In this document: positions 15,980 through 45,234 of the stretch, one piece after another
How positions within the stretch are numbered: the stretch's first letter is position 1
Layout of the letters: each line of letters begins with the position of its first letter
Assembly: GCF_964355755.1 (NCBI RefSeq)
Contig: NC_092678.1
Span: forward strand, 5,348,422 to 5,412,421
Reading direction: 5' to 3'
Length of the DNA stretch: 64,000 nt
Source of the DNA: Antedon mediterranea
Taxonomy: Eukaryota > Animalia > Echinodermata
The notes under the pieces: generated by a model
Told to the model about the DNA's origin: nothing
Seen by the model: the letters and a program-made list of their open reading frames with translations, nothing else
Databases searched by the model: none
Program-made: the position numbers and the translations under genes

Positions 15980-17898
15980 CAGCCATAACATTTGTCGTAA
16001 CTCAAATGTAACTAAATAAGATATAATACAAGAATAGATAGTAATTTGTAGGGATAGAAGGTCTACAGAAACAATCAATTACCGATCTTATGTAATGTAA
16101 GTCACTGGATACTGGCACACAAGTATAACATTCACCTTTGTGCACACTCTAACTATCAACAACAATGGTTGGATTGCATTATTTGTTCTTAATATCTCTT
16201 GGTAATAGTAATTGCTGTTTGTTCATGATTTCTTTTTGTGATATTTCATTATGCTTAAAGTAATTATGTTATAAAAAATGTATTTATAGTTTAGTGCGTT
16301 TTGTAGTTTTTATTTTTTATAGGCTTGTAATAAATAATATCAGCTTGCAGTGTACTTTAACTTTGACTACAATAGGCCTAAATGCTTTCTCGAATCAACT
16401 CTGTTGTAAGTAGAAGTGGGTCTATTACTTCTACAAAGGGTAATAAAATAAAAAATAATGATAAAAACCTAAAACCTGCCCCGAAACTACTAGTCCAGCG
16501 TGGGTGGATTAAAATTATACCTTTCAGCAAGAAATATTTATATTGCACTTTAAAAAAGGGATGGTATAGAAACATCTGATAGCTTGATAAAAGATGATTT
16601 TTGTATACAGTTTTGAAAATATTAAAAGATTAAGTAATATTGGACCATTAAGGAAATTCTATTCATATCGGTTATAAAATGGAATGGACCTGGTATCATA
16701 TTTATGTATCCTAGTTATGAAACGAGTCAGTCTAATAATTAGACACATTGGATTACAAGATAATAAATAAGATGGCGTCTAATAAATCTTACTTTGTCCT
16801 TATTTTGTCTTCAGGATCTCTTATCAGTCTATACAAAATGGGGAAACAGAAAAAGTACTTTTCTAATTAAATTTCAAAAAGTTATATTGGCTTTTATGAT
16901 AGTATGAACAACAAAATAGGCTTGGACACGATTTTACGATTTTACAATGCAGTACTGTGCATGCATTGATAACTGTCAATAATAAGGGCAAAAACAAAAA
17001 CTTTAACAAATGTGAAGTAAATTCCTCAAAGACGCCATACTTGTTTTTATGGTAATAATATACTAGTCAAATATAGCCCTATTAATGTGCATAAAAAACA
17101 CCAGCCATAAAGTAAAAGAGGCACAATTATAAACAGTATTGAAAAATAACTATATATTATAAAATACAATATTATTCGTTCATAAAATTAAGTACGTTAT
17201 TATTATTATTATTATTATTATTATTTAAGATTATTATTCTTATTATAATCAGACAATTGAAGAGGGAATGCTCAACATCAAGTACATAAGCTGTTGCACT
17301 ACGTTTCTAAAAAAAAACAAAATCTTAGATGAAAGTGTAACAGACAAATAAGCGTAGTCCCTCTCCTTCACGAAATGGTAGGCCTATTTATGATAATAGC
17401 AATACGACTTTATCAAGAACGGATCACGCGATATCCACAATGTAAAACCCCTGAAGCAACAACACTATCGTACTGTTGTATTCACAATTGTTCAAACTTG
17501 GGTAATGCGTGTCTTTCTATTATATGCATAATATGCATATCAATAACAGTAAACGGTTAACCAATGATCAACTACTTCCTGAAATATATATAGGCCTAAA
17601 AATGAAGCGCCATTCAACGGACGGTATCCTCTTTCTAGAAAATATTTTAGATTTAGGTTTAAAAAAAAAATAATATAGCCTAGTCTAGATAATATAATAA
17701 TAAATAATTTGGACTTATAAAGCGCATAATGTATAATCCTCAATGTGCTACACAATAATAATGGAATAATAATAATGGATAATTGTGGAAATGTCGTCAT
17801 ACAAAACCGTTATCAATTCACCCGTAACAATTACTTACTTTGGTAGCGATCTAGTATGCAAATATCATTGATCGGTAGATAAAGACAAACTGCACAAA

Positions 17899-20800
17899 AT
17901 GTCGGCTTCCGTAAGTATACAGTTTTGTTATTATTTACTATTTGGGCCTACTAATTATATTTGGTGTATAGATTAATCTACAAAACAAAAATATAAAGGT
18001 AAAGGTAAAGGTAAAGGTATTCATATTTGTCCTCAAGCTTAACTGGAAACTGAGGAAATTCGGATTAGGCCCTCACATAAATTATTCATTTGAAATTTGG
18101 GTGGGGCACGTATCTTGGGCGCGTTGGTTCCATTCTTCATTTTTTTGCTGTCGACCTCTTTCCTGTTATTTAACTTCTCCTGGTGAAAAGATCATAACAA
18201 CATTGCATACTACAGATATGTCGATAATTTCTTCAAAAGAAAATAAGATTTAAATAGACAAAATAAAGAAAAACATAATTAAAAACTATTGAATTGAGTT
18301 GATTTTTGTTTTGATAGCAATGTTTTCTATACTAGGCCAATACCATTGTCAATATTGCGCGGTACTCAGATGGGAAGATCACTAAACTTATTTCCTAATT
18401 AATTATTCATGATAAGAAAATAATTCCTAAAAACGATCTCGGTGTAATTGCTAAAGTATATCTTTAATTCACTATTCCAGAACAACTTTGATGACTTGCT
18501 TTTTGATGTAAGCCGTATATACGAAGGATACAAATTGAACGAGCTAAGACTTCTACTGAATAAGCGCTGTGATGGAGCGACGTTAGCTGAAAAACGCAAC
18601 GGAGCACTGAATTGGTTTCGTGAACTCGAAGCCAAAGGTTATATTTCTAAGGAACCTACAGATGTAGAAATTCTGTTGTCGTTGCTAACGAAACAGAAGT
18701 GACTGACGCCGTATCCTTAATAGACGATTATATAAAAAAACATCCAAACAAGAAGGAAAACGTTACGAAGGGCCTACCAATCACACCATTTCGGAAAAGA
18801 CTTCTAAAAGCTGCAAAAGCAAACCAGAGGGATGTACAACTTATGTCTCCTGCCTACAAGAAGCTCCAAAATATAAAATTTGACAATATTTTTGATTTCA
18901 TTTTTAAACTTGAGCAAGGTTGTGAACTGGAGGAGGAGAACCCAGACACAATAACAAAGTTTGCAAAATGTCTGTCAGAAAATGCTTCAAAAATACTTCT
19001 CGGTAAATATTATTTAATGACAAGTAAGAGAACAATAATACAAAAATAGAGTAATAAAAACTTATGGCATTTAGGTATGGAATTGAAATTGATATAGAGA
19101 GTTGGCATAACCAGAATGAACAACAAGTAGAATTGGATACTGAAAAGAACCGGTAGCTATATTACCCAATACTGAAATTAGAAAAATCATTTCCTTGTTA
19201 TTTTGTGATAATTATAATTCATATGATTAATTCAATAGAATAACCATAATATCGTGGGATTGCATTATTATAGGAATCTTTTTAAAAAACAAGGCCAACA
19301 GCCATTAAGTCGCGTGCTAGAATGCATAGTGATACCGGACCGACAGACAGACCGACCGACCGACCGACATAGTAAACTATAGAGTCGCGTCCACGCGACT
19401 AAAAACATGCATTTGATGCAAGTGTATACAATAGTTAAACTTATTGATTCAGGTACATCGGAGCCAGCTACATCGCAGTCAGGTACATCGCAGTCGGGTA
19501 CATCGCAGCCAGGTAGGCCTACGTCTACGGAATCTCCAAATACTACTAGAGACAGAGGCGTAGAAGGTAAAAATAAAAAGTGTCAAATTACCTTGAATTA
19601 CCTTCAAATGTTTTACACAATAATTGCCTTTTAAAATAATTTCTTCAAACTTTCATATTGCTGTAATTTCTTTATTTACTTAAATAAATTAATTTTATTT
19701 AAAAAAATTAATTCTCTTCTCCGTCTCAGAACGTACGTGGCGGAGAAGAAGGTAACATTCGAATACTACTATAGTTTTCAGTCAATAATCCAACCTGCTC
19801 TTATCGGGTCCTTAATATTTATCAGACAATCTTTCTTTAACAAGTTCAAGCGAATTTATTTATATAAACGCTACCTGAAACAATTACCAACAATAATACA
19901 TGGAATAGTTGACCATTGCTTCAATCTTATCGATAATGTGGAAAACAAGGAGATCATTTGAAAACTATGATCTTGATAATATTAAAAACGTCATTCCTAT
20001 TAGGCCTACTGTAATTTTATTGTGATTTATTTAGGCCCCAATTAGTTCAATTAAATTATTCGAAATAATTAATTCAGCCTCAGAATATCTAGTGATTTCT
20101 TCAGTATTACACAATCGTCTGATTTTTTCAAAATTACTTTCTTTAAGACAGTGTATATAATTACACCCTCACCATTAAAATAAATTTCATTTGTCATTTC
20201 AGATGAGCCTGATAACGCAGCTGTTGCCACAAGTACTACACCTATGGTAATACACGATAGGTATAACTAACATAGCATTATGCTATAGTAAACAATTATT
20301 AGGGTAATCCCACACAACTAAACCGTTATATGTTACTTATGTTGCACTTATTTACAGGAGGTTATACAAATTATTATATTAATTAAATAAATCATTATTT
20401 AGGGGGAGACCTACAATACGCGCTATGGTTTGTAAAACCTAAGTTGTCCGAAAGTGAAATTACTACATAGTATTTTCATATCCAGTTGAGCCATATAATA
20501 ATTTTACCATTTCCCACCCTCTAATTTTCAAAATGGATCTATACATCGTAACCAAGTGTTATACTATAGGAACTACTTTATAACATTTGCGCAATTGAAT
20601 CAACATAGAATTTCGCCTTCCTGATGTACGGTCCATAGTCATTTGGTGGATCCAAAGAGTAATTGAGGTTAGCATTGAGCTTAAACAATTGTTGCCTGAT
20701 TACATGGTTAATGACAATGGTTTATATTGTTTATTTCGATTAGGAACACTGAAACAAGCAGACTGAAGAGGATACAGAATTTTACAAAAAGTAATTATCA

Positions 20801-22876: not shown

Positions 22877-23375
22877 AAAAAGAACGTTTGATTTGATTAA
22901 CTAGGCTATTATATAGTTTCAAGATACAGAATAATACAGGACAGGGCCCTGAAGAATTGGAATTATTACAATGAAATTAGCGCCTAAACATATAAAAGAT
23001 TGACGCTACCAACACCCAGCAACAAAACCTATTATAATATCAATAACCTTATGGCCGGTTCAGTGCAACAGTAATCGATGACGCCCACCACTCAACCATA
23101 GACAAATAATATCTTCATTTTAATCATTCAAGGACTGAAATATAACTAATAATAACTAACTAATTAATAGAGAAGATGAGACTAAATTACAAATGTTGCA
23201 ATTAATTTGATATAGGCTTCTAATTCCAATGTTTCCACCATTGGATTACTCAATGTCGTAATACAAACATGCTCATTCATCCATACAATCGTTTTGTATC
23301 GAATACATTAGGCCTTATACATATCATTATCCGATCGACATAAATTGTAAATCAGGCTGCGCATTGACCTTCAAA

Positions 23376-26300
23376 ATGTCGGCAAAACAGGGGAGTAAAT
23401 TATCTACCGTAAGTATACGATTTCGAAGGTTTTTACTTAGTAGTATCTGGTACTAATAACTATGGTGTAAAGTCTATAAACTATCCATTGTAATCTGTTT
23501 GAAGAGATAATTTCTTTGACGGCGGTGAATGCAAATGAATTTGAATTAGTTGCTTCTAGTGAGGGGTAATTACAAAACAAAGATTTGCCATTTGATAGGA
23601 CTACCGTGCCTCTGGGCGACAGTCATATCCGACAGTATTATACTGCAAGTACAGGCCTACTGTATATTTACATAGATGATAATTGCACGCTGATTATTCA
23701 TTCATTACTGATACATCAGGATATTTTTTTCAATTTCATATTTTGTTTACCGTTACAGACAACAGCAAGTCCCGATACATTCAGAAAATTACTTGAAGAC
23801 ATAAGTAATGCATATAGTGGTAAAAAAAGATATTTTTGGTTAAGACTTTTATTAAATGACCACTGTTCAGGAGGTATGTTAAGTAAGCCTGTAGATGGCA
23901 TGACAGGGCTCGATCTGTTTAATGACCTCAAAGATCAGCATTACATTTTTCCTGATCCTACAGATGTCGAGATTCTGTTAGATATTGGTACGGTAACAAA
24001 GCAGGCCTCGGTTGTTGAATTAATAAAAGATTTCAAAGAGAAGTATCCAAATACCGATGCCAACTACAAGTCCAAATGCAAAAAAATATCAACATTTCGC
24101 AAAAACCTTTTCAATGCTGTAAAGTCAAATGGTAATCCTGTAAAAAAAATGCATGCTAGCTACAACGACGAATTAAAAGGAGAAGTGTTTGATGATATTT
24201 GGGATTTTGTGTTCAAGCTGGAAAAGGAAGATTGCTTGACCGAGATTTCTAAGGAAAGATTTGCAAACCTACTCGACGGGAGGGCAAAGAAGATACTTCT
24301 AGATGCAGCGAATGGAAATGCACAAGGTGAATAAGCAGTAATAATCATTCCTTCTATTTGAAATCGTTTGAATTATTACAATAACAATAGGTATAAAAAT
24401 GACCAATACAAACTGTTAAAATAGCAATGCAAGAAAGAGTAGTAAACATGATGCTTTGCATAGGCCTATTAGAAAATGAACATAATTGTCAAATAGACCG
24501 TTTTCAATTTAGATTTAAAAATTGTTTACCTAATTCTCTGTCCTATTAAATATCACATTCATAATATTCGTAATAAAATGTCTTTTTTTTCTGAATATGG
24601 TTCAGACTTTAAAACCTGAAGATGTAATAGAAAATAAGAAACATTCTTGACTTTTTTGTTCTTCTGGTATTATAGTTGAAGAAGAAGCTTCTGAGGTATA
24701 CACACCCTACACACCCGAGTTGGCCAGAGGACAAGGTATTATTATTTATTATCAAAATAATTTCAACCAATTTTAACAATATATCATGACGATGAAGATA
24801 TCAACTTCCATTACTTACAGTTGATTTTCATTTTGTTTTGGAAAACTGTAACTCTAACCATAATGTTCAAAGAAGAGAATTCTCATCCCAAATTAATTAA
24901 TTTATATTCACAATTTACACAGTAAGCAAAATAATTCCCTTTTTTACTTGTATCATACAGTAGTCTACTTTTAATAAATCATAAATAATTGTGGAGTTGT
25001 TGGATCGAAGTAGCGATGACCTTACAACATACGTTTTGTTTTTGTAGTATCCATTAGCCTGATTTCACAAAATCTTAAAGCTCAGGTACAGGCATGAATT
25101 TTAAATATAATATCTGGTTAATTGTACATAAATCAAATATGTGTAACAGAAATCAAGATGAAAAACCATGAATTTCCCCTAATATGGTCAAATACAAAAA
25201 CCAGGAAGACTTTTTTTCAGTAGTTAGGTAGTTAACATAATGTAATAACATGTCTGGTGACTCCCTAGAAGGTGAAAAAAGATGGTGGATATACGGTGGA
25301 TAATTTTTGCTATAGCATGAAAATAAAATTCTGAAGTTGAATAAAAATACCAGAAATGTAAAATTCAAGTTATATTGCCTATATTTAGTCATCTGATAAT
25401 ATTTTTTACCACACCGTTTATTTTTCATAGCTTTTTAAAATGCCTCTCTATTTTCAAAATTTGTGTACAAAAGAATAGATTTTACTGTGTAATTTGAACT
25501 ATCCCCACACTGATATGAAAGTGCTAATTTTCAAAAAACAAATAAAATTCCAAAAATTATGAAACATAGGGGAAACTATAGATCGATAATTATTGGAATG
25601 TATGATCAATAGAAATGTTTTGCCCGCACCTGGCCTTTAACGAGACTGCCAATAAAGTGTAGCTAATATTCCGATTCTCGTGTACCATGTTTGAAAGAAA
25701 GAATGTACAGAATAAATTTTAGGTTGACTTTTTCAGGTGAATATCATCACACAGGAGAAGAAGAAAATAAACGGATGATTGAAGAACCTTCCACATCCCA
25801 GACTGATCCGATAGAAGAAGGTCATATTAAATATCACATTCATAATTAATCGTAATAAAATGCCTTGTTTTTCCGTATTATGAGAAAATTGTTCAGACTT
25901 CAAAACCTTATGATGTGGCAGAAAACAAGAAACATTCTTGCTTTTCTGTCACTGAATAACAATATTTAATATATGTTTTATAGATATAACATATCTAATC
26001 TTAATTTTCAAAGATGAATCTTCTCGTTTAGTTGAACAAGAAGGTTCTGTGGAATCCACACCCGAGTTGGCCAGAGGACAAGGTAATGTTATTTATTATC
26101 AAAATAATTTCCACCAATTTTGAAAATTTATCATGACGATGAAGATATAAATTTCCATGATTTAAATTTGATAGGATAACTATAACCCTTCATAATGTTC
26201 AAAGAAGAAAACTCTCATCCCATATTATAAATAACTTATTCTAGTGACGAGTGCATATCATGTATTGTTTTTCTTGTTTACTTCAGTCATCATCAAAGTT

Positions 26301-28399
26301 ATTGTTTGTTTTATCTGGAGATTCAGACATAAAGCCATTATGACTTTTTTAAATCTCCACACACAACCAAATGTAGAATTTTTCAATATTTATCAGTAAA
26401 AATGTACTTATACTATGTTGTGTGAAATAAAACTGAAAACTGAAGTCTAAACAACTCCAAATAAAGTGTAGCTAATTCCGGTTCTCGTGTGCCATGTTTG
26501 CAAGAAAGAATGTACAGAATAAAGATAACTTTTTATGTGAATATTTTGACACAGAAGACGAAGAAAAAGAAGAAGAAGAAGAAGAAGAAGAAGAAGAAGA
26601 AGAAGAAATTGTACAGATGATTGAAGAACCTTCCACATCCGAGACTGATTCCACGGAAGAAGGTACATATCAGTCCTGCTACTAAAATTAACATGTACAG
26701 TGAAATGAGAAAAAAATTGTTACATATTACAGTTGATGGAAAATACCAATATTGCATTCACTAGCCAAAAGTAACAAAATGAGATAGTGTGATGATAATA
26801 CAACTGACAAAATGGACTTCTGTAATGTTCAATTTTTTATTAACTAAAATGAAATAACAATTGTTATTCATTAAATCAATTTAGGTTAATATTCAAATCT
26901 ACAAAATATAAAAACAGTAATTCGAAATGATAAATTGAGCAGGACAGGCAGCAACTATACCATGCATACCGTATGGCCTACTGGCACAATAGTAAAATTT
27001 ATAAATAATAGAAAATTAAAACAAAATTGTCTTTGTTACCGTAATACAAAATTGACAGTATTGTTTTTAAAATAAAATATGATAATTGCCCTACTGAATG
27101 TAATACCTTGAAAAATAGTAGGCATATGTTTTTGAAAATATGAGTTTCAAAAACCAATAACAATTGTTTGATCTCGGAAAACAAACACCGTAGTGAAAAT
27201 GAAAACATTTCTTTTTTCTTTTCAGTTGTGCATGATGGAGACACATGGTAAATGACCTCTAGGTATAATAACATAATATTAGCTAATTATTCCGGTAAAC
27301 AATTATTGTATCACACGAATAGTAAACATTTAACTGTTTAACTATTACGTAAGATCTCCCTTCACAAAGCGAAACCCAACGAGGTTGCCTGAAATTTATG
27401 GAACAAAATAATCCAAAACAATGGCGAAGTTTACAGAACAACTATCCAGAGGTATCACCACTCACTAACTCCTTAAAAACGGATCTGCGTTCTTAAAACT
27501 GGATCTGCGTTCCCTTTTTAAGTTTGACCAAAAAGAGTGACTTCACATTTGCGGAATTCAATAGTTTTTTGAAAATATACTAAGAGGATTTGAAAATAGA
27601 ATACTGAAGGTTTAGAATAGTCCAACATAATTATTATTTGGCTATTATGGTTATGTGTTTTATTATATTGTTTTAATTAGCTTAATACTGAAGAGGATTC
27701 AGAATTTTATCGAAGGTAATTATTAATTTAAGACAAAATCTTAACGTAAATATAATGTAAATTGATATATACACCTACATAACAATGTAGATAAAAATGA
27801 CCGAAGTTAAACGTTGAATTACACACAACAGACTGTTTCATGAAGGAGATAAAAATATATTTTCAATCATCAGGTTTTATGCTCCGAGTCTAAAATTGTT
27901 GGTAAGAACTATTAGGCCTATAATCATTTACATAAAATAAATTAGCAGCTCCATCACTCCGTAATTATACTCCACACAATCATGAATGGCAGTTGTAAAC
28001 TATAAATATTTACATAAGCCTCTTCCTACTGAATCTTTTTCCAGTAAGACTTAATTTATTAATAATAATTAACTAAAGCTAGCATTTTTTATTCCCAATA
28101 CTTTGAAAGTGTTTTCTATTTATTTATTTATTTCAGAAAGAGAAAATCGATTTCAACAATGTTGGTGCGTTTGTGGGATTCTATTGATACCGTGTTTTAT
28201 ATTGGAAATAATATTTTATGTTACTTCAATTAAAGCGGGATATATAACTTTTCTTATAATTTTCATATTACTAGTTGTCATTTTTGCTGTATTGTCATAC
28301 AAATTTGGTAAAAAATATAAAGTATTTATCGAATGCATTGCTGCAATCGTTACTATAATTTCAGTGCTTGGCGTTATTGACCTAGTTCTTAGTAAATAA
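23376..28399 (+). CDS. Gene C: tandem-DED-like / acidic linker / 3-TM protein, ~407 aa
   Basis: Exons 23376-23408 (MSAKQGSKLST), 23759-24326, 24676-24735, 25737-25820, 26032-26082, 26555-26662, 27226-27247, 27681-27715 and 28137-28399 give 1224 nt open. Which linker exons are included is less certain. Confidence 0.72.
25079..25636. mobile_element. Probable non-autonomous DNA transposon with TTAA target duplication (Kolobok-like)
   Basis: TTAA flanks at 25075-25078 and 25637-25640. Imperfect TIRs AGCTCAGGTACAGGCA / TGCCCGCACCTGGCCT (12/16 match). Confidence 0.5.
26561..26607 (+). repeat. (GAA)n coding microsatellite, poly-Glu
   Basis: GAA run within the gene C linker exon 26555-26662. Confidence 0.85.
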
Positions 28400-29759
28400 C
28401 ATTTGCTTAACATTTCTCGTAACTAAAAACTAAAAAGTTAACTAGGCCTTATAATAGTAAATTATACCTAGTAAATTAGTAAATAACAGGCCTACATGTA
28501 CCATCATAATTTTGCGGATAGTAGGCCTACATTAAATTACCGTACGATGTCTTGGTATGATTATTGCTGTTTTTGTCCATTTTCAAAAGATGAAGGGATA
28601 CCAGGATAATCGCGCAAGCCAAGAAATAGAATACAACATTTGTTTCCGAAATTACGTGTAAAAGGTGCAAGTGATTATTTTTCTAAACTTTCTAATGCCT
28701 ACAAATGTCTATATATAAAATGCTTATATATAGACTATGTGGATGCAAAATGTAGTGTAGTATATTTTAATTAATTTATATTCACAATTTACACAGTAAC
28801 CACAATAGTTTATTTATAGTTCAAGCTTTTATGTCGTATACGGTAGTCTTTTGTGTAATAAATCATAGAATAAAATAGTTGTTGAGTTGTTGTACTGTAG
28901 TTGCAAATCTTTTCTTGGATCGAAATAGCCATGGCCTTACACCACATTGGTTGCTAAAATCACATAAATCTGTCTGGCTAAGTGATATAGAACAATCAAT
29001 ATCTTAATGATTACAAATTTAAAATAAAAATTAAGATATTATAAAACCACCATCCACGTTTGGATTAGATGAACATCTACTACAGATTCTTGATGTTAAA
29101 TATAACTGAGGCAGTTAGAGGTAGAAAAGGGGCAGATGGAAATATAGAACGCAGATTATGTAAAATAGTAATTTAAATTAAGAAAAGATGAATATCATTT
29201 TCTTATTTGTTGACGTTATCGAGAGTAACTGTAAAAGTAAATTATGCCAATGTCATTTATAGTAAAACCTAGCAGACAAAATGATTATGATGGAATACAC
29301 TGCATGTATAATGAAAGTAGTAAAAAGTAATAAACACAATGAACCTAATACATATCAAAGATGGACGCTAGCAACACACGCCAGCAACAAAACCTATTAT
29401 AATATCAATAACCTTATGGTTCAGTGCAACAGTAATCGACGACGCCAACCACTCAAAATAGACAAATAGTATCTTCATTTTAATCATTCAAGAACTTATT
29501 TCTGAAATATAACTAATAATAACTAACTAATTAATAGAGGAGATGAGACTAAATTACAAATGTTGCAATTAATTTGATATAGGCTTCTAATTCCAATGTT
29601 TCCACCATTGGATTACTCAATGTCGTAATACAAACATTTGCTCATTCATCCATACAATCGTTTTGGTATCGAATACATTAGGCTATGGAGGATAGGCCTT
29701 ATGCATATCATTATCCGATCGACATAAATTGTAAATAAGGCTGCGCCTTGACCTTCAAA

Positions 29760-32700
29760 ATGTCGGCAAAACAGGGGAGTAAATTATCTACCGTAAGTAT
29801 ACGATTTCGAAAGTTTTTACTTCGTAGTATCTGGTACTAATAACTATGGTGTACAGTCTATAAACTATCCATTGTAATCTGTTTGAAGAGATAATTTCTT
29901 TGACGGCGGTGAAGCCATGGAAATGCAAATGAATTTGTTGCATCTAGTGTGGGGGGGGGGGGCAATTATAAAACAAAGATGTGCCATTTGATGTCGTAGG
30001 ACTACCGTGACTCTTGGCGACAGTCCTATCCGACAGTATTATTAATTATCATTATTATTAATGCAAGTACAGGCCTACTGCATATTTACATGGCAGATAA
30101 TTGCACGCTGATTATTCATTCATTACTGATACATCAGGATATCTGTTCAATTGACATATTTTGTTTACCGTTACAGAAAACAGCAAGTCACGAAGAATTC
30201 AGAAAATTACTTGAAGACATAAGTAATGCATATAGTGGTAAACAAAAATTTTTAAGACTTCTATTAAATGACCACTGTTCAGGATATCTGTTAAGTAAGC
30301 CTGTAAATGAAATGACAGGTCTCGATCTCTTTAATGACCTCAAAGATCAGCATTACATTTTTCGTGATCATACAGATGTCGAGATTCTGTTAGATATTGG
30401 TACGGTAACAGATCAGGCTTCGGTTGTACAATTAGTAAAAAATTTCAAAGAGAAGTATCCAAACACCGATGCCAACTACAAGTCCAAATACAAGGACAAA
30501 CAAATATCAACATTTCGCAAAAACCTTTTTGAGGCTGTAAAGACAAATAGTAAGCCCGTAAAACAAATGCATGCAAGCTACGACGATGAACTAAAAGGCG
30601 AAATATTTGATGATATTTGGGATTTTGTGTTCAAGCTGGAAAGGGAAGATTGCTTGACCGAGGCTTCTAAGCAAAGATTTGCAAACCTCCTCGACGGGAA
30701 GGCAAAGAAGATACTTCTAGGTATGTACTGCATGTTTTTTAATCATACTAGGCCTACACTGCATTTATTAGTAAAAAAAGTAACAGAGTTATACATACGC
30801 CAGCAATAATTTTACAAATGCAACAAGCCTACTCGCCTAACAAACAAAACGAGTAAACAATGATAATTTAGTAATAATAAGAGTAATATTATGTATTCTA
30901 ATTAATGTGACCACTGTATGTGGGCGTTATAATAACGATATGCGCTATATAAGAACAGACTATTATTATTATTATTATTTCGATCTCTTAATCACACCGT
31001 ATACAACATGTTCAATCCATATTTATTTATTTGATTAACCACAAAAATTCAGGTCTTCTTATCAATCTTCCTCCGCTTTATAATCGGATTTTTTTTCAAA
31101 ATGGTTTTTTCTCTTAAAGCATAGTTAACTCTCTTTGTAATTGTAATTTGTTGTGATTTTTCTCTCTTAAAATGAATCGTCCTAACACTTGCAACACTGA
31201 TATTTTTTCTCTTGCCCGTTGTCGAATTAGCGTAACTAACAATGGTTTTATTCAAAGATTATCCAAGCTTTACAACTCAATTTATTTATTTATATATTTA
31301 TTTATATAAGCAGGGAAGAGTTTAACTCTTCCCTGATATAAGACTATCTATATTTTGTTAAAAGTTTGTCAATTTTTAGATATAAAGTTTTTAAAGCTTT
31401 TTAATTTTGCCAAGTTTTGTATAATGTTTCATATTGTATTTTCTGTGTTTTTAGGTATATATTTATATCCAAATATTTTAAGTCTTCCTATAATTTGCGA
31501 TTTTTCGCTGTTAGATGTAGTTGAAATAAAATAAAATAGATAAAACTAAAATAATATCATTATCATTATAATTAAATGTTAACAGGTGAGTCGTCGCTAC
31601 CAATTACATCTACAGAACCTGTATCCATGCCTGAAAACGAACGCAGTGGACAAGAAGGTAATACTTTTTGTAAAACAAATCCAACATCAAAATATACAGG
31701 CCTATTTCTTATTAGTCTGCATAACGCTATCATGTAAATTTTCATTTTGAGCCTCGAATATGGAATAAATCTTATTATTATTATTATCTATTATAGGCTT
31801 CAGTGTTGTTGATAATGGGGAACCGTCAACATTAAATGGAAAGGTAAAAACAAACCAAAGACTAACTGATAAGGCATTACACACAATAGCACATAGTTTT
31901 AATAAGGTACTATACTACGGAAAGAATATTATATAGCTATTAAGACATCATAGTAGAGACGATTAAACACACTTTTTATTTTGTAATTTAGCTTTCTGCT
32001 TTTCATCATCCTCACGATCTTGAAAATTAATAACCCAATATTTCTTCTTACCAAAAAAAGATTTCGTTATTTAATAAATTGTTTTTTCCTCAAGCAATAT
32101 TTCGAAACATAATATAATTGATTAATTATTTTTAAGGAAAGAAAAGAAAAAACACTAGATACACAAAGCATGGAAGGAAACGATGAAGTTATCAATAAAG
32201 CGGAGATCATCAAAAAACAAATAGAAGAGAACATTGATTGTGTTAATATAGGTAAACAGAAATTTCAAAACCGTGTAACAACATGTGAAACAGAAATAGA
32301 GAAACACAAGCAATCTCAAATTGACAGCATTAGTAAAATTCTTTCTGAAGATATACATGTCCTTGACAAAATACGCAAAGAAAAAAATGCAACATTTGCG
32401 AAGCAAGAAAGACATCTTCAATCACAGCAGACTGCTTTGAAGGATGTGATCAGTGACAGTATCAAAAACCCAAAGAAGACGGGGAATATTAAGTTGCAAA
32501 AAGTGGAGGAAGAAATCAAACGATATTCAGCAGAGACCTTTTTATTTGATAAAGAACACCATAAGCCAACAATCATCGAAGTTGTAATACCATATCCAAT
32601 TTTAAGATTAAAAATTGTTGACTGGGACTTTATTATTGATAATAAGGATAGTTCATTTTCAGTAACAAAGGGACAACCATTTACAGTGAATGTAGCAAGA

Positions 32701-33732
32701 CAGAAGAGCGATACATTTTTATCACCGATGTCTTTAGATGCTAGACTGATATGTCAATCATCAGGGGAAGAAAAACCTCTTGCTGTGGTGGAAGACAAGA
32801 AACATGGGAAATTTAGAATAACAGACAAATGTAATGAGGAAGGCAAGTGGAGGATGGAGGTTATGACTCCTGACAAATACTACATCAAAGGATCTCCAGT
32901 AAATATCACAGCAGTACCAATGGGAATTGTGAATGACACGACTATTACTGTATTCAACAAAATACCAAGAGGCCAGCGTGTCACAGACGTCGTATTGTTA
33001 GATACGGAAGGTAGCATGTTAGTATCAACCAACTGTGCATTTTTCAAATTCGATAACTCAGGAGAGTGTGTTATCAATACAAAATGTAAGAAAATAGTAA
33101 AAAGGTTGCATCAAAGTAATGGTTACATTATTTACATTGAAAAAAACAGTATTGTAAAGTGTGATGATACATTGAACAAAATAACTACATTTAAATTTGA
33201 TGATAACGAATTGGACTCGCCATCTGGCTTGATAGTAAGTAATGACACACGATTCATGTATGTTGTAGATCAATCAGCTCACTGTGTCTTCAAATTCAAT
33301 ATCGATGACGGGAGCCTGATTGGTACGATAGGTGAACATGGTAGCAAAGAAGGTCAAATGTACAATCCAAAGGATGTTGCTTTATTAGGGAGAGATCGTA
33401 TCGTGGTTACCGACTTCGGTAATCATAGAGTTCAAATGTTTGATGTAGTAGGCCTACACGGGAAGTACCTGAAAACAATTGCTGATAAAGGCGAGGGCGA
33501 TGGACAAGTTGAAGATCCCTGTGGAATTGTAATAGACGACGATGACAATATAATAGTATCCAGTAGAAATAAACTACAACTATTTGACAAAGATGGTGGT
33601 TTCTTAAGACGAATTGATGAAACTAAGGATGCTATTGATCTTCCAAGTTCAATCACTGTAATCTCAAAAAGACCAAGAAGATTAGCAGTTGTAAATTCAG
33701 GAGGGAAAAATGTGAAAGTATACAATTACTAA
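29760..33732 (+). CDS. Gene D: tandem-DED-like / coiled-coil / filamin-type Ig / NHL-repeat protein, ~763 aa
   Basis: Exons 29760-29792, 30177-30720, 31586-31657, 31797-31843 and 32137-33732 give 2292 nt open. Filamin-like signature YIKGSPVNIT; NHL repeats PSGLIVSND..YVVD..HCVFKF, GSKEGQMYNPKDVA..IVVTDFGNHRVQMFD and GEGDGQVEDPCGIVID. Confidence 0.82.
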
Positions 33733-33748
33733 ATGTTGAAACATCAAA

Positions 33749-33830: not shown

Positions 33831-34200
33831 ATCACAACCGATGTGTTAATAATACAAACGATAGTAATCTAATCAATAGTAATTGTTAAACGATTTCCTA
33901 TAAAACAAAACGTTTCTTATATAGCCTACCGCTTACTAACGTCAAGATAATACACTTTCATTTCATTTCATTTATTTTGTCTCCATAAAAATACAATTTA
34001 CAAAACAAGGACAAAAAAAAACAACACACAAAACCAGGCAAAGACAGGATTGCTAAACACTATCTGGTAGGTCTCCTATTACAGTAGATGACCTTGTACA
34101 TTTAAATTTTGTTGACATTCAGAAGCATTTAATTGGTTATGCTCCTTATAAATAAGAATAAAACAATACACGCATGTAGAATAATTTTAGGTGTTGTTAA

Positions 34201-34542
34201 AGGCCCATTTACACTAGGGCGATAACGATCGGCGATAAAAAGACCTAAAACAAAAGAATTTAAAGTTTTAATCCTAGAACTATAGGATTATCATCTATGC
34301 TGCCTTTGATGAAAATAATATTTCCACACGTCCAATTAAATGACGTCATGATTAGTAAGAGCAATTATATCGTGATAATACGATTTTATTGTTTTTATTG
34401 ATCATGACGTCATTTGATTAGATTTTTTTTAAATATTTTTTTTATCAAATACAGCATAAATGATTATCCTATAGTTCTAGAACGAAAACTGTGTGTTTAT
34501 CTATTTATCGTCGATCGTTATCGCCCTAGTGTAAATGGGCCT
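34201..34542. mobile_element. Palindromic MITE (Tourist/PIF-Harbinger-like)
   Basis: TIRs AGGCCCATTTACACTAGGGCGATAACGATCG / CGATCGTTATCGCCCTAGTGTAAATGGGCCT, TAA on both flanks and internal symmetry. Confidence 0.88.
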
Positions 34543-34833
34543 TAAGGGGGTTTTTTTTGCGGTCTTCCGGAATTGGTACCTAAATTTATAGAAAACTGCG
34601 CAATGCTAAATAACTTTTCACGAACCAAAATGTTATGGTTAACTTGTTGATTCTAAATGATACTTTTTTTAGCTAAACCATTTTATATTTATATTATATT
34701 TTACTAATGTTTAATTGTACATAATTGTTTGGGTTTGTTCTGTAAGAAGTCTTACGTATTTCAGCCTCTGGTTATATTATTAATATTATTTTACAAAAAC
34801 AAAATTAAAGTTAAAACTAAGAAATTAAACGTA

Positions 34834-36382
34834 TCTATATATAAATTTACGTAAGGGCAAAATTCGGTAAATCGCGCCTTACTTTTAGAATTTTTACTCG
34901 ATGGTATGTAAAGTTGGTTCGTACTTTCGGTACTGATTTTAACCACCTGATGTAACCCTGTTTACTAATTAAATTAAGTTAGATAATTAGTTATTGACGA
35001 TTAAAACGAATTTAGGTTCAAAGATTTGCCCCCAAATAGGGGTGTTTTCCGATCGTGGTATACACTGTCTAATGGATGTCCATCTTGAAAAATACCCGCC
35101 ACAAAAATGCGAGGAGGCTTCGCATTTTTCTATCTCCTCCTACGATAATTGTTTTTAATAGCTGAAAACCGGTTGAACAGTTTGAGTACAGCATCATAAT
35201 GTTGAAGACAGGCCGATTTTCTTTAAAAAATACTATTTTGATACATTTAATATACGTTTTTACAAATGTATTGATTTGTGATGAATGGAACATTCCAAAT
35301 TATTTGGTTTAACCATACAGGTATAGATTTAGATTTATGGGCCTCCTTGGAGAATAAACATAAATAGTATTGCAATGCTGTACAATACTGTTAAGGTATT
35401 AACCACTTTTGATCGCAATTTGAATCGCAAATGTCTTACTGTGAGTGTTGGTACTGTTAGATGTAATATAAAAATATATACAAATAAACTTTATTACTGT
35501 GAGTGTGGGTAGGCCCTACTGTTAGATTATAAACATATAATATACAAATAAACATTCCAAATTATTTGGTTTAACCATAGAGGTATAGATTTAGATTTAT
35601 GGGCCCCCTTGGAGAATAAACATAAATAGTATTGCAATGCTGTACAATACTGTTAAGGTATTAACCACTTTTGATCGCAATTTGAATCGCAAATTTCTTA
35701 CTGTGAGTGTTGGTACTGTTAGATGTAATATAAAAATATATACAAATAAACTTTATTACTGTGAGTGTGGGTAGGCCCTACTGTTAGATTATAAACATAT
35801 AATATACAAATAAATAAACGTTATTACTGACAGTTGCTTCTCAACGTTTGTATTAATTAATAATTTAAAAATATATAAACGTCGTAGTGGTGTATCGTTA
35901 CATGTACTTTACTATTTCAATCGACTATGACAGTGAGAGTTTTAACAAAGTACCGTATTAAATCGTAAATGTTTTACTGTATTTAGTGGTATATTATTTA
36001 TAGGCCTATAAAACATTAAAAACAATATTTCGTTACTGAGTGGATAAGAATATATTTTAAAATGTTTCCTCTTTGTACCTATCTTCTTCCCCATCCCTCA
36101 ACCCTTAATGTTACATACAAAACACAAATTGGGTTTGTTTAAATGAGTCCAAATAAAAAAAATTTGTTTCTCTCTCGGAAGTAATTCCCAGGGTGCTAAT
36201 TTTGGTTGACTACATAAATCATTGTGTATATTTATTCGTTTCTGTAAACGACAATGTATTATAGTCCTGCGGTACGTACATTTGAAATCTCCATTTTTTT
36301 CTCGCTGGAAATACCGTGTATTCGAGAACCATCTGTGGGCACGACCTAGATGGTACGCGAGCGAAGCGAGCGTGCCATCTAG
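34834..36382 (+). mobile_element. Non-autonomous Helitron
   Basis: A|TCTATATA start; 3' hairpin CTAGATGGTACGC..GCGTGCCATCTAG|T. Same family as 12827-15383. Internal ~260-bp tandem duplication (35290-35550 / 35551-35815). Confidence 0.8.
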
Positions 36383-37499
36383 TCTATTTAAATTTATCTT
36401 ATCTCAACATTTATTACCCATTAATAAGAGGATCACCCACTATCAGGCACGATATGCATCTCGTGTTATGCCCTTTCCCACATTCACGAATTTGAAAACT
36501 ACATTGTCACTTTCCTGTTACTACGATCGCACGATGGGGATACGATATTGTTACGATAAATCTCCTCTTTTAGGGCCTTCATCCTATAATACCCAGTGGG
36601 TCTTTTTCTGTGTAAAGTTGGGGGCCGATAATTGTCGTGCTCTGTAACTCTCTTGGTCTTGGAGTCACCCAAATTTATAACAGAGAACCGGTAGGGATAT
36701 CAGCTACAGGGTCTGCTATTTCGATAGAATGGAGTGATGTTCTAAATTGTTTCTTTTTTAAACTTTTATCGAAAACAGTGGCCTCTTAATTACTTTGTAC
36801 TTAAATATTAACGGCATCATATCAGCACCGTAGCTCTTTCGTGTTATGAGCACCACGAATATTTTGTTCTGTCTTGTGTGAGTTCGTCCCACTTTTATTA
36901 CAATTCTCTGTTATAAATATATCTACATGTGACAATTAATAATAGTTACGGATGAGTACGAATGAACTAGAAGACGTCACGAAAACACTGAGACTGATGC
37001 CGCTGCGACTTGATTGATTTGATTTGATTTGATTTGATTTGACTACAAATGAGTTCACAGATACAAATTCAGATAAACTTTATTTCATCCTTCGCAAGAA
37101 AATTACACGGTCGCAGTTCAAGTAAAGTATCAAACAGATTATCTCTGAAAAATGTCGTTTATAACATCGTATCTTAGGGTAAACAAATGTCTATAGCAAT
37201 TCGTACTTGGCGACAATAATTTCTCTATCTCTCATTCTTCTTTATAGGTTGAATAGTACTGATGAGAATCATAATACATAATTCTAGCACACTGACCATG
37301 TCTAGCGCGAATTTAAACTATGTAAATATAGCGTCCGTGGTAATTTTTGGATCGACAAAGGGAACAAATGTTCCTTAACAATTTGGCAAAGAAAGCTATT
37401 TGTAAGGTTTTTCCCAACAGATTTCTGAAATATTTTCTACCAAGCTCTAACTATGACGACTGCCTTTAGGGCCTAAGTTTGAGTTTCGGTAATAAATAA

Positions 37500-38019
<520 letters not shown>

Positions 38020-39548: not shown

Positions 39549-40038
39549 TGTCACAAACTCCCTTTACGTATGTTTCCGAGCGGTTGAAAATACTTTAGGA
39601 ACTCCCTTGTGACATAAAAGTATACACACAAAATCCACAAAGTTGTAAAATAACCCAAAAACAAAGCTTTAATTTCAATCAACTTCAACTTTTAACAATC
39701 CAGTAAGCACTTTAAACAACAGCTTCACAATAACTTTACAATCGAATATCCAACCTCTAATATCAAACCTTCTTAAAAAATAAATGCGTCAATCAAAAAG
39801 CCTTCTCCCTTCTTACGATTGTCATACTTCCCCTTATATACAATATGTTCATAACCTTCTAGATCATTCCTTATACTTCTTATTCTATTTGATTACAGTT
39901 TCTATTAATAGCATACTGGAATGTTCCTGATTGTTCTTATAATAATTATACATGGTTTCTTAAATCAAAACATCTTATTTTAGAATGTTCATGTAGATAC
40001 TAAGTTACTGTATCTGTTAGGAATAGTAATTTATTACA
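39549..40038 (-). mobile_element. Solo LTR
   Basis: TG...CA termini, 5-bp target duplication TCTGT (39544-39548, 40039-40043) and high similarity to the LTR at 62709-63168. Confidence 0.92.
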
Positions 40039-40620: not shown

Positions 40621-41490
40621 TATCGGCTTATATCTTTGTATTTTTTTTTACTTTGGATGAACCTACCTGTACCGAAAGTAATTGAAGCAATTAGCCAGTG
40701 ATATAAGACATAAACCTACAGAGAGTAAGTTTAAAACATACAATAATACTTTTTTATATTCAGAATATTTCTAGATCCTTAAAAGATACAAATGAGATAT
40801 ATAACAGTCTGTAATTACTGTAAACACAATTAAATTTTCAACAAAACGCATATGCAGAAGCTTTATACAAATGCACAGAATCAGTCAATCAGCAAACTAT
40901 TTAAAAATGGTCAGGAACCTATACACAAGGAAACCAATGTTTATTAACCATGCATGCACACTATAATGTTCATTATTCTAGGTCAGACCATTACAAAAAT
41001 TAGGTACTGAATTATTACCGGTTATTATTATTTTACAGTCAAGTCAAGAATTGCAAGGCACTGTAAGTGCATCCACACAGTAGAACGATTTTGAAAGAAA
41101 TGTTATAGAGAAGAGTTATAAAGCAGAAAATGATTGATGCTAATAGATGCATTGAACAAACTGAAGGGATGAAGTCACTTCATGATATCAAGCAAGAATT
41201 AGAAACTGCAGTGCATTCTATAATAGAGGACAAAACAGATTTTGAATATCATGTAAAGATAATCAAAAATGATATTAAAATAGCTAAAGAAGATATTATT
41301 TCTATAGAAGACGAAGACAAACAACTTGAGTTGCAGAAGAATAAAATGCAAACTGTTATTTTTGAAGGTAAAGAGATGAAAAGAGACAATAAATGCTAAC
41401 CTACTGTATAATAACAAGTAACCTAAATTGTTATAGAATCTGGGTCTGGGATGGGTGCATCCACATCTCAGACAGTCCTAATTATTGCAG

Positions 41491-44400
41491 AAAGGGGAGA
41501 AAATGCAGTACTAATAGTTTTAAATATTTTTTTACAAAGCATTAAGACATTTAATGAAGAAGTTATATGAGCAATTCAACAATATCCAACTGATGCAATA
41601 CTTTTATATACATGCGACTACTTGGGCTGTTGAATATATTAAGCTGGAAGGGAGCAGACGTTTGATGGGTACACAGGAGCCAACAGAAAGATTTGCAAAG
41701 CTTGACGAACTTTCAAAATATCTATATATTGGTTTGTATATATATTACTAAAATAAGAAAATAAACGAGATGTAATAATAAAAGCAGCAAATAAAAATAT
41801 GCTAATCTAATGTATTAAATATTGATATTTAATTAAGTATTAAACACAAACATACAATAGTGTATTTTAATGTTCACAGGTTATTATTCTGGTAGCAATG
41901 AACAAGAAGGTTCTATGGCATTCACACACCGGTCTGTTTTTACCATCGGAGGTAATATTAACATTTTTTCTAAAAAATATTCCAGTCTGGGGGACGGGGC
42001 ACCCACATCTCAGGCTGTAGTGTTATATAATCCAATTATGGTACTGTGCCTGTGCATAGAGTTATACATAAGCAAAGTGATTCAATATCATTTTATTACA
42101 TAATCATAAAATATAATATTTTAAGAAATAAACTAGTGTTAATGTTAATTTGTATTGTTTCTAATTTTAGAATTATATGTGGTAAGTGGTGATGTGGAAT
42201 GGGAAAAACAGGTGAAGCGGGAGCTGCGACGGAAAAACACAGTTAACCACACAATATCAAAAAGATGGGAAATAAGGGCAGTGTTTACTGTAGGAACATC
42301 ATCAACATGTTAGTTATTTATAAATATATAAACGACAGACACATAATAATAATGCACCCGGTAATATTTGCAAAAAAGATATAGGCCTAATATGTTAATT
42401 ATTTTAACTATACTCTATAGGTATTGTATTAAAAGAAAGAGTACAAACAAAAAAGCCGGAAATATTGTACAACTTATGGTCCATGGGTTTCATAGATCTG
42501 GCATCAATATTTGATGACAATGTTATCAGAAGAGCAATGAAAAATGGTAGGTTGAATTTTAAATACTGTTCACAAAAGTGAAAAGTTAAATGGGACTGTA
42601 AAAAAACACAAACTATAGAATGGTGCATGCTAATTAAGTAACACAACCTGTTGTAAATTTATTTAGATGCAGGCTACCAAAGAGCAACTGTCATCACAAT
42701 TACCATGAGTTGGCCTAATGCAGCACTTTTACTTAAGCATATGATCATTCCTGCGGTAAGTTTTCAATTATCAAACATAAGATATCTTTGGTCTCTATAG
42801 TGTACTTAGAAAAAAATATATAAACCCTTTTAGTGTCACCTCTGATAGTATTGTGAATATTGTCAATGTAGAGAACCGGTATTTATGTCAGAAATACATT
42901 ATTTTACCTTTTGAAAAAAATGTAGTTATTAAATAGAAAGTTAAACAAGCAATTGAAAATATAATAATATTGATTTATTTTAAAAGGAAAGAAAAAAGGA
43001 ACTAAGTACAAAAAGAACAGCTGTTAAGTATAAAAAAGCAAGTAATACAGCTTTCGAGAAAGCTGGGTTTCTCAAACAACAAATAGATGATGGCATTAAT
43101 TATGTTAAAAGGGGTAAACAAACATTTCGAGAAGATGTAAGAAGATGGCGAACAGAAATAAACGAACACAAGAAATCTAAAATTGACAACATTAATGAAA
43201 CTTGTACTGCTGATATGCACGTTCTTGACCAACTATGCGAAGAAAAGAATAAAATCTTTGAGAAGCAAGAAAGAAACCTTGAGAAGAATAAGACTGATTT
43301 GAATGATGCGATCAGAAAAATTAGAAACAACCCAGAGACAGGAAATCTTGAGTTGCAAACAATTGAGGAAGAAATAAAAAGATCTGAAGAGAGCTTTTTA
43401 TATGTAGAACATCTTAAACCAACAATCACCGGTGATGGATTAAAGATTGTGAATTGTAAACTTATCATTTATGATAAGGATAGATCGTTTTCAGTTACAA
43501 AAGGACAACCATTTTCAGTGAATGTACAAAGAAAGTACAAAAGTGATCACGATACATGCTTACTTGCTACTCTGATATGTCCATCCGGGAATGGACAAAG
43601 TCTTGCTGTTGTAGAAGACAAGAAACATGGAGAGTTTACAATAAGAGCTATGTGTGATAAGGAAGGCGATTGGATGATGGAGGTTATGGCTACTAATAAA
43701 CACTACATCAAAGGATCTCCAGTAAATATCAAAGTAGCACCAATGGGAATTGTGAATGACACGACTACTACTGTATTCAACAAATTACCCAGTAGTCAGT
43801 ATTTCACAGACGTCCTATTATTAGATACAGAAGGTAGCATGTTAGTATCAACCAATTGTGAATTTTTCAAATTCGATAATTCAGGAGAGTGTGTTATTAA
43901 TACAAAATGTAAGAAAAAAATAAAAAGGTTGCATCAAATGAGTAATGGTTACATTGTTTACACTGACAAAGAAAGTATTGTAAAGTGTGATGATAAATTG
44001 AAACCAATCACTACATTTGATGATGAAAAGTTGTTATCCCCAGTTGGCTTGACAATAAGCAATGAAACAAGAGTCATGTATGTTGCAGACAGTTCAGCTC
44101 ACTGTGTCTTCAAATTCAATATCGATGACGGGAGCCTGATTGGTACGATAGGTGAACATGGTAGCAAAGAAGGTCAAATGTACAATCCAATGGATGTTGC
44201 TTTATTAGGGAGAGATCGTATCGTGGTTACCGACTTCGGTAATCATAGAGTTCAAATGTTTGATGTAGTAGGCCTACACGGGAAGTACGTGAAAACAATT
44301 GCTGATAAAGGCGAGGGCGATGGACAAGTTGAAGATCCCTGTGGAATTGTAATAGACGACGATGACAATATAATAGTATCCAGTAGAAATAAACTACAAC

Positions 44401-44552
44401 TATTTGACAAAGATGGTGGTTTCTTAAGACGAATTGATGAAACTAAGGATGCTATTGATCTTCCAAGTTCAATCACTGTAATCTCAAAAAGACCAAGAAG
44501 ATTAGCAGTTGTAAATTCAGGAGGGAAAAATGTGAAAGTATACAATTACTAA
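41491..44552 (+). CDS. Gene E: coiled-coil/filamin/NHL paralog with a divergent death-fold-derived N-terminus; 5' end unresolved, possibly a pseudogene
   Basis: The terminal exon 42987-44552 is open (522 codons) and homologous to gene D. Upstream phase-consistent exons are 41880-41951, 42171-42308, 42421-42546 and 42667-42755. A degenerate DED2-like exon ends at 41731, with an apparent frameshift at the T7 run 41527-41533. Further candidate exons lie at 38520-38545 and 41109-41367. Confidence 0.6.
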
Positions 44553-45234
44553 ATGTTGAAATACTCTAGGCAAAATAACTACCAGTACAAACAATAGAAA
44601 ACAAAGCAACACAAATTAGGTAAATCAGTTGCAAATATTTTTAAAACCATGTCCTTTATTACCACAGGATCTTTATTGGTACATTGTGTGGTTTAATTAC
44701 GCCATGATTGGTGAAAACGTGGTTCTATGTCACAAAGGCGTAGGATTTTGGAAGCTGCACGTCTTACGGAGATGAAATCACTAAAGTTTAGAAAATCGCT
44801 TGTGGTGGGTTGGTTCTAATGCCTTACGGGCCTGCAGCATGTAGATTTATAAATATATATAAACATGTATTCAGAAATAATACGCAATACGTATATGCAA
44901 TAAAATAGACACATTTTTTATATTTTGTTTTTACGATTGGTAATATAGAGGTACTAATTTAATGTTTCATAAATTTGTGTAGGCGTACAGTGAAAATAGT
45001 TTATAAATTCCTGCATTCCTTGTTTTACTGTTGTGTGGTGTTATTGTTGGTGTGGTTTTCTAAATGAATTATTTTTATATTAATATCTGTTTATCCTTTA
45101 ATAATAATAATGATAATATTAATAAATATTGTAGCTGTCTAATTAGTAGAAATGTTTAAACTTTGTATGTAGTGTTTCAAAATATCAAAACCTGTAAGCC
45201 AATTATTTTTCAACTGACTTTTACATTTTTCCAT

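Follow-up and report, generated by a model that had tools for sequence, protein, structure and literature searches.

In pyrin (TRIM20), a death-fold domain (PYD) stands in the place of the RING on a TRIM scaffold, whose coiled coil dimerizes (parts of PMC4455283). In invertebrates, death-effector domains (DEDs) head several kinds of variable sensors, among them DED-NACHT NLRs, DED-bearing RIG-I-like receptors (RLRs), and expanded families of DED-TRADD-N-WD40 proteins, and amphioxus DED-TRADD-N proteins carry variable beta-propellers (passages of PMC2575513, PMC8998645, and PMC8195603). Here we describe gene D of the feather star Antedon mediterranea, which lies in a 64,000-nucleotide stretch of NC_092678.1 (positions 5,348,422 to 5,412,421; here, the window). 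Our best explanation, to which we assign a probability of roughly 0.45, is that gene D comprises five exons and encodes a 763-residue, pyrin-like intracellular sensor or adaptor with the predicted order tandem DED (tDED), linker, coiled coil, filamin repeat, and NHL propeller. A death-fold head on a TRIM-type coiled-coil-filamin-NHL tail, together with a shuffling of modules within the gene cluster, is supported by the analysis below. Head and tail are likely to share one mRNA, with a predicted splicing path, and, given expression, an immune role for gene D would be somewhat favored.

The window has a GC content of 32% and contains a tandem array of genes that have an exon for about 180 amino acids in common. 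We designate the array genes A to H (C and D keep the letters of an earlier note on this DNA) and the NHL locus downstream of gene D N2.

A five-exon model of gene D

The earlier note placed the DED cassette and the NHL exon in a single gene. An open frame does connect them, by way of two micro-exons that the note did not notice, but the direct join from exon 2 to position 32137 is frameshifted, with 57 stops, because the phase 1 end of exon 2 does not fit the phase 0 acceptor at 32137. With the two micro-exons, all ends of which are GT-AG, the five-exon frame is open over 763 codons (Table 1); skipping of exon 3 also leaves an open frame. As a control, the same manual procedure applied to gene E gave its RefSeq model (P0168) letter for letter. 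The best match of exon 3 anywhere in the window is the linker exon of gene A (score of 68 versus a background of 36 +/- 5.5), and the phase 0 acceptor of exon 5 is homologous to the one used by the RefSeq model of N2. The frame of exon 5 is constrained: it stayed free of stops in only 5 of 2,000 neutral simulations at d=0.1 (63 of 2,000 at d=0.05), and 7 of 9 indels between D and N2 are in frame (the remaining two give a net 6 nucleotides), compared with 1 of 11 in noncoding C/D sequence. Such constraint says nothing on the splicing of exon 5 to the head.

Table 1. Features of gene D, gene C, locus N2, and the tandem array (window positions)
Feature	Position	Strand	Remarks
D upstream/promoter region	29344..29759	+	Duplicated in C (22983-23375); putative promoter, by position
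D exon 1 (MSAKQGSKLST)	29760..29792	+	Phase 0 donor; homologous exon of E in RefSeq P0168
D exon 2, tandem death-effector domain	30177..30720	+	Phase 0 to 1; ends at the family donor
Start of D intron 2	30721..30769	+	Homologous to the start of the E intron; not common to C
D exon 3 (predicted linker)	31586..31657	+	Phase 1-1; related to gene A linker exon
D junction of tDED-family and NHL-gene sequence	31658..32036	.	A-like exon ends at 31657; similarity to N2 from 32036
D exon 4 (predicted adaptor micro-exon)	31797..31843	+	Phase 1 to 0; weakest part of the model
D exon 5, coiled coil (aa 12-132), filamin repeat, six-bladed NHL propeller	32137..33732	+	
Gene C	22983..28399	+	D-like head, exon 2 to 24326, acidic linker exons, three-transmembrane last exon (28137-28399)
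N2	41039..44552	+	B-box/coiled-coil piece, tDED remnant, linker, TIR-like start, coiled-coil-filamin-NHL exon
N2 B-box/coiled-coil piece	41039-41370		Broken, P0029 type
N2 tDED 3' remnant with donor	to 41731		Followed by C-like linker exon
N2 coiled-coil-filamin-NHL exon	42987-44552		83% identical to D tail exon
Array gene A	10326		Shared exon
Array gene B	18481		Shared exon; frameshifted
Array gene C	23759		Shared exon
Array gene D	30177		Shared exon
Array gene E	49933		Shared exon
Array gene F	53009		Shared exon
Array gene G	55097		Shared exon
Array E'	58397		Partial copy
Array gene H	60398		

The head had been described as a single DED, but the predicted fold is that of a tandem DED, with two packed death-effector folds. 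The AlphaFold2 model of the exon 2 product has a predicted local distance difference test score (pLDDT) of 89.5. When compared with PDB structures, it matches the caspase-8/cFLIP tandem DED best (Z of 15.0, root mean square deviation of 2.5, 155 residues aligned over the 181-residue exon); the top 20 matches are all tandem DEDs (Z of 11.2 to 15.0), and PYD structures reach a Z of at most 6.4. Other scores are lower: the best Foldseek match has an E value of 1.3e-3, and the Pfam DED model gives D an E value of 0.31 (11.7 bits, with a curated cutoff of 35.9); paralogue A scores 30.2, and several multi-DED relatives pass the cutoff.

For the tail, Pfam, AlphaFold2, and Foldseek agree with the earlier assignment of positions 32137 to 33732 to a coiled coil, a filamin repeat, and NHL repeats. 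Pfam detects NHL in exon 5 with an E value of 4e-10, above the cutoff, and filamin with an E value of 0.004, below it. The exon 5 model (pLDDT of 83.9) consists of a 99-residue helix (residues 12 to 110), a return helix (118 to 132), a filamin repeat, and a six-bladed propeller, and thus contains the coiled coil and short return helix typical of TRIM proteins. The Foldseek matches include Lin41 filamin-NHL (E of 8.5e-23) and TRIM2 NHL (TM score of 0.81 by target), with TRIM2/3 NHL also being close. Neither a RING nor a B-box was found in the D exons with a RING pattern and Pfam, and D lacks both of these features of TRIM (RBCC) proteins. Across 36 crinoid tail paralogues, the top face of the propeller is far more variable (2.49 bits at 30 sites) than the bottom loops (0.97 bits at 48 sites), with a p value of 4e-11 that is optimistic because the paralogues are related. 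Pairwise dN/dS (the ratio of nonsynonymous to synonymous change) showed no positive selection.

If gene D is made as modeled, the variable propeller face would bind a ligand, the coiled coil would dimerize as in TRIM proteins, and the dimers would cluster. Clustered tDEDs could then recruit tandem-DED partners such as the caspase P0127 or the DED-Death protein P0156. DEDs are known to nucleate filaments, in agreement with the titles of the matched structures. P0127, an A. mediterranea protein annotated as caspase-6-like, has a head of the D family (25% identity, E of 1e-11) and a QACR motif, and its tandem-DED prodomain suggests that it is probably an initiator. P0156, also from A. mediterranea, combines a tDED with a Death domain and is a candidate FADD-like adaptor.

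Arguments against the five-exon model and alternative products

Several observations weigh against the five-exon model and the role proposed for it. Among the proteins searched, identity to exon 2 of C or D is at most 49% and that to D exon 5 at most 70%, and C and D may lack transcript support, their neighbors A, E, and N2 being annotated. RefSeq short isoforms of A and E (P0069, P0070, and P0169) end after the linker, without the transmembrane (TM) exon, so that gene D could likewise be cut short ahead of exon 5. Exon 4 is supported neither by a homologue elsewhere in the window nor by independent evidence, and an ATG at 32170 lies within exon 5 itself. The dN/dS values, 0.66 for the C/D head and 0.80 for the D/N2 tail, are not significantly below 1. 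Changes between D and N2 favor the top face weakly (7 of 30 sites versus 24 of 239 elsewhere, p of 0.06), and variability of the face could also result from neutral drift of the surface or from nonimmune binding. Among the contigs listed, none covers the whole of gene D. A further run, X1, which is RNA by guess and to a small share, gave pieces over 33340 to 33741 with no splice joints and weighs neither way.

The lack of an annotated D protein, the short isoforms, and exon 4 would also fit two separate units, in which D yields no more than a tDED with its linker, or is not expressed, and the NHL exon is transcribed by itself, with ATG 32170 as its start, or is part of a different transcript. 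We regard this as unlikely, since the exon 5 acceptor is common to N2, the ATG is not conserved there, the exon-1 motif of the family is absent between 29756 and 38516, and two phase-compatible micro-exons bridge the gap.

About equally unlikely, in our estimate, is a decoy or brake, whereby D would cap DED filaments like cFLIP and viral FLIPs, or, as a RING-less TRIM, would use its coiled coil to pair with TRIM-NHL paralogues that have a RING. The cFLIP and MC159 structures do match the head nearly as well as caspase-8 (Z of 12 to 14 versus 15), D has no enzyme domain, and 18 of the 36 crinoid paralogues have a RING. However, the head family of D leads many sensor-type proteins, likely as their output, and a variable propeller face suits ligand recognition.

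Duplication of the head in genes C and D

The earlier note had further proposed that a recent copy of the gene C promoter and DED took the place of the RING on a TRIM-type NHL exon, giving a possible RNA sensor likened to RIG-I. The high similarity of C and D that it reported over upstream DNA, exon 1, intron 1, and the DED exon is borne out: positions 22983 to 24302 and 29344 to 30720 are 88.0% identical over 1,389 columns (blastn and alignment). Mismatches per aligned site amount to 16/389 upstream, 0/33 in exon 1 (which encodes MSAKQGSKLST in both genes), 28/350 in intron 1, and 51/538 in exon 2 (9.5%); divergence of the coding exon is thus no lower than that of the intron. This similarity is far above chance, and the sequences are too diverged for a collapsed copy. 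It stops, as the note said, after ATACTTCTAG, the last base of the DED exon, and gene C continues to a three-TM exon in an open 407-residue model with three hydrophobic segments.

The duplication is recent and includes upstream DNA, the tail of D is of the TRIM-NHL family, and a head swap onto a preexisting D locus is possible, all of which agree with copying from C. Nevertheless, we consider this origin, and the RNA sensor tied to it, improbable. ATACTTCTAG is the ordinary splice donor of D: seven of eight aligned DED exon ends show G/GT there, C alone not, and the donor directly follows the ILL-G codon position in A, B, D, E, E', H, and the N2 remnant. In C, exon 2 runs 24 nucleotides beyond the lost donor, to 24326, an extension without a matching exon in the window. 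The D/E blastn match continues into the intron (z of 6.4 to 6.6; background windows score as high in 3 of 1,801 cases). The C sequence beyond the break is unrelated to that of D (1,564 of 1,810 background windows score as high), and the C intron after 24326 resembles the start of the H intron (0 of 1,809). The linker exons of C resemble those of N2, D exon 3 is A-like and not C-like, and the tails nearest to D lack a RING. C and D have no intron 2 bases in common, contrary to intronic exon shuffling with C as donor. What had been read as a C head landing on an NHL exon is therefore better described the other way round, in that D has kept the ancestral donor, followed by an intron that begins like that of E and by a linker exon like that of A, and the odd junction is in C. 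On the simplest reading of these sequences, C received a D-type head or lost an intron and D kept the ancestral state. Each of C, D, E, H, and N2 is a mosaic of parts found in the others.

Age of the tDED-NHL join

Nor does the junction appear to have been caught in the act. Synonymous divergence (dS) between the D and N2 tails is 0.40 over the coiled coil and filamin repeat (0.013 over the last 156 codons), compared with 0.14 between the C and D heads. The N2 tDED remnant matches the end of the gene H exon (81/118 nucleotides, E of 1e-10; weak as protein, with E of 0.017 to 0.17). Together, the D/N2 divergence and the remnant suggest that a tDED upstream of this NHL tail probably predates the C/D duplication, although a later head swap at D is possible. 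The remnant, along with tDED-NHL predictions in two crinoids (see below), indicates that the fusion is not newborn. The array may have evolved as a tandem set of tDED genes that exchanges heads, phase 1-1 linkers, and tails; a tDED would have joined the NHL tail before the heads of C and D were duplicated, and the recent event most likely gave C its D-type head.

The 3' ends of D and N2 (33262-33741 and 44082-44561) are nearly identical, likely a gene conversion tract; after residue 379, two amino acids differ, including K412M on the ligand face. The RefSeq model of N2, P0001 (100% identity over 521 residues), runs through frameshifted sequence, and the locus may be a pseudogene or an annotation artifact. 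Its TIR-like start is 35% identical to P0004 over 31 residues.

Relatives of the tail and the head

A RING is present in 18 of the 36 crinoid tail paralogues, a tDED in 2 (P0025 and P0012), and a TIR-like head in 2 (P0004 and P0011, the latter with a Pfam TIR_2 E of 0.007), leaving 14 with none of these; P0025 and most of the others have a B-box. P0067 is an additional tDED-RING-NHL model. These tDED-NHL RefSeq models come from Antedon mediterranea (P0025 and P0067) and Anneissia japonica (P0012). In tail trees, one of them built by a quick method, D and N2 adjoin four RING-less Antedon genes, and P0025 and P0067 group with the RING gene P0024 instead. With the four nearest tails RING-less in their annotated models (a moderately supported placement), there is little reason to suppose that D swapped away a ligase head. 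The head tree unites D with C and P0025 with P0062.

Topology tests (LG+G4; 20 and 21 rows comprising all Antedon tails and eight from Anneissia, with D/N2 as a long branch) rejected a clade of the Antedon tDED-bearing tails alone (approximately unbiased test, p-AU of 0.012 and 0.002) and one with Anneissia P0012 (4e-49). A single tDED-NHL origin in Antedon is not rejected if P0024 is admitted (p-AU of 0.19), which also counts against our reading. The combination likely arose two or more times in crinoids, and the trees favor two origins within Antedon.

A profile search with the head against 1.84 billion proteins found 101 relatives, 2 of which (P0025 and P0067) have an NHL tail. Domains were scanned in 71 of the 101, leaving out 28 under 310 residues and 2 scanned earlier. 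Eleven contain NACHT, six Roc/COR, three a kinase, three Death, and three MAM, and one each contains RIG-I, caspase, a very large GTPase, TIR, UCH, ubiquitin, or NHL. Of 20 relatives whose taxonomy was looked up, 15 are from Antedon, 3 from Anneissia, and 1 from Ptychodera. Atlas searches returned TRIM-NHL clusters and DED clusters (at 0.90 or below) and none with both, a blank that is uninformative.

Two relatives unite a tDED head of the D family with a helicase: P0164 (A. japonica, 962 residues; E of 7e-4) is a RIG-I helicase, and P0066 (A. mediterranea, 3,044 residues; E of 1e-28) is a HELZ2-like helicase/RNB protein, found in a search that covered only proteins of 1,569 to 4,480 residues and is no census. 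The RIG-I analogy drawn for D fits these two proteins better, and the DExD/H helicase and C-terminal RNA-binding domain of RIG-I-like receptors are present in P0164 and absent from D.

The suggestion that the NHL propeller senses RNA likewise finds little in the LIN41 pocket. Zebrafish LIN41 contacts RNA through eight basic residues, R564, R581, R611, K628, R676, R707, R752, and R770 (parts of PMC5908797). By blade position, mapped manually through a 6fpt alignment with approximate anchors in blades 1 and 2, D has R, N, I, K, S, K, D, and N at these positions. Three of eight are basic, those at R581, R611, R676, R752, and R770 are replaced, one of them by a reversal to Asp, and the propeller has a net charge of -3. 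LIN41-mode RNA binding by D thus seems unlikely. Other RNA-binding modes are possible, because NHL surfaces change fast (parts of PMC5908797) and the NHL-like domain of TRIM56 binds viral RNA (parts of PMC11768893).

Assembly support

Contigs were available from four DNA runs of one sample, possibly that of the assembly itself. They bridge 30620 to 30967 in four of four runs and 31568 to 32655 in one piece in one of four, with no differences, and cross the C junction in three of four. That the arrangement of D is a misassembly of two loci or haplotypes is very improbable: although no listed contig spans the gene and a repeat lies near 30930 to 31075, contigs cross both the end of exon 2 and the step from the linker to NHL without a difference, and D differs too much from C (in exon 2) and from N2 (dS of 0.4) to be a collapsed copy. 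Among the contigs listed, none extends over 30967 to 31243 in one piece, a hole that proves nothing.

A second, diverged version of the D linker (31603-31828; 18 differences and 32 gap letters) occurs in three of four runs of the same sample, and one of part of the propeller (33274-33604; 39 differences) was seen in X2. They represent either the other allele or a paralogue elsewhere. A one-haplotype state of D, suggested by lower contig depth, was dropped because depth is not copy number and a second diverged copy is present in the same runs.

Other genes and elements in the window

RefSeq proteins of Antedon mediterranea match genes A, E, and N2 at 100%. A family of genes with a tandem DED, a low-complexity linker, and three TM segments occupies 9432 to 15979, 23376 to 28399, and 49588 to 51539, with further TM exons near 20950 and 56525; for A, C, and E, the models have open frames. 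Pfam found nothing under an E value of 0.01 in the two three-TM tail exons scanned. Gene B is a duplicate of A (17332-19699 and 8854-11724, respectively), with its DED exon frameshifted near 18685, and the linker of gene A contains a 15-bp tandem repeat (GTSQP/S). Gene E has a partial duplicate (50243-51340 versus 58407-59442; 87%) that begins within exon 2 and whose TM exon looks truncated.

Transposon-like sequence forms an inverted pair at 13940 to 15385 and 34832 to 36117. The window also contains a 344-bp palindrome (34200-34543), a reverse transcriptase-like fragment on the minus strand (5664-6760; judged by eye from the list of open reading frames), a 490-bp element present twice (39549-40038 and 62709-63168), and, between D and N2, an (AT)n tract some 520 bases long (37492-38016).

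Comparison with known systems

In a full-text literature search, no combination of DED, NHL, and TRIM or filamin was found, nor did any of the titles listed concern this architecture; most subscription journals and supplements lay outside its coverage, and fusions of this kind may be recorded in the source data of PMC8195603. The passages of PMC2575513, PMC8998645, and PMC8195603 contain no NHL or filamin combination, and the term NHL occurs 0 times in the portions of PMC2575513 and PMC8195603. As death folds grafted onto sensors are known and the architecture already exists among RefSeq predictions, the surprise is limited. The nearest of these predictions, P0025, P0067, and P0012, are uncharacterized; they share with D the head family and the tail type, and the P0025 head is sister to that of P0062, which has another tail, as that of D is to C. 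They differ in keeping the B-box (and, in P0067, a RING), and their tails are about 34 to 38% identical to that of D and lie elsewhere in the tree.

Among characterized proteins, D shares the coiled-coil, filamin, six-bladed NHL tail with TRIM-NHL proteins (TRIM2/3, TRIM71/LIN41, Thin, and Brat). Unlike these, it lacks RING and B-box, does not keep the LIN41 pocket, and belongs to a family expanded in crinoids whose propeller face is hypervariable; TRIM2/3 are also without the RNA surfaces of LIN41 and Brat (parts of PMC5908797). The fold of the head is like that of caspase-8/cFLIP, at 17% identity, but no caspase or pseudocaspase domain follows it. In contrast to the DED-bearing NLR, RLR, and TRADD-N proteins, D has no NTPase, helicase, or TRADD-N. 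It is thus not a TRIM protein in the strict sense, a LIN41-type RNA binder, or an RLR.

Tentatively, and at less than even odds, feather stars may possess an expanded family of intracellular receptors in which a hypervariable NHL propeller serves for recognition, much as LRRs do in NLRs and B30.2 does in pyrin, with repeated rewiring to tandem-DED, TIR, or RING outputs; D would be a fully stripped, death-signaling member that activates a tDED caspase. The cluster offers a compact test case for the exchange of heads, phase 1-1 linkers, and tails, in an echinoderm class with a little-described immune repertoire. Should gene D prove to be expressed and to signal, the NHL propeller could be counted, alongside LRR, B30.2, and helicase modules, among the variable sensors linked to death-fold signaling.

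A close parallel in design is pyrin (PYD-B-box-coiled coil-B30.2), which likewise has a death-fold head on a TRIM scaffold and a long linker between head and coiled coil. D differs in having a tandem DED instead of the PYD, filamin-NHL instead of B30.2, and no B-box, and there is no sign of a common origin. The design of gene D is known in principle, but this variant of it is real and seems not to have been described; if expressed and signaling, D would be an independent parallel to pyrin.

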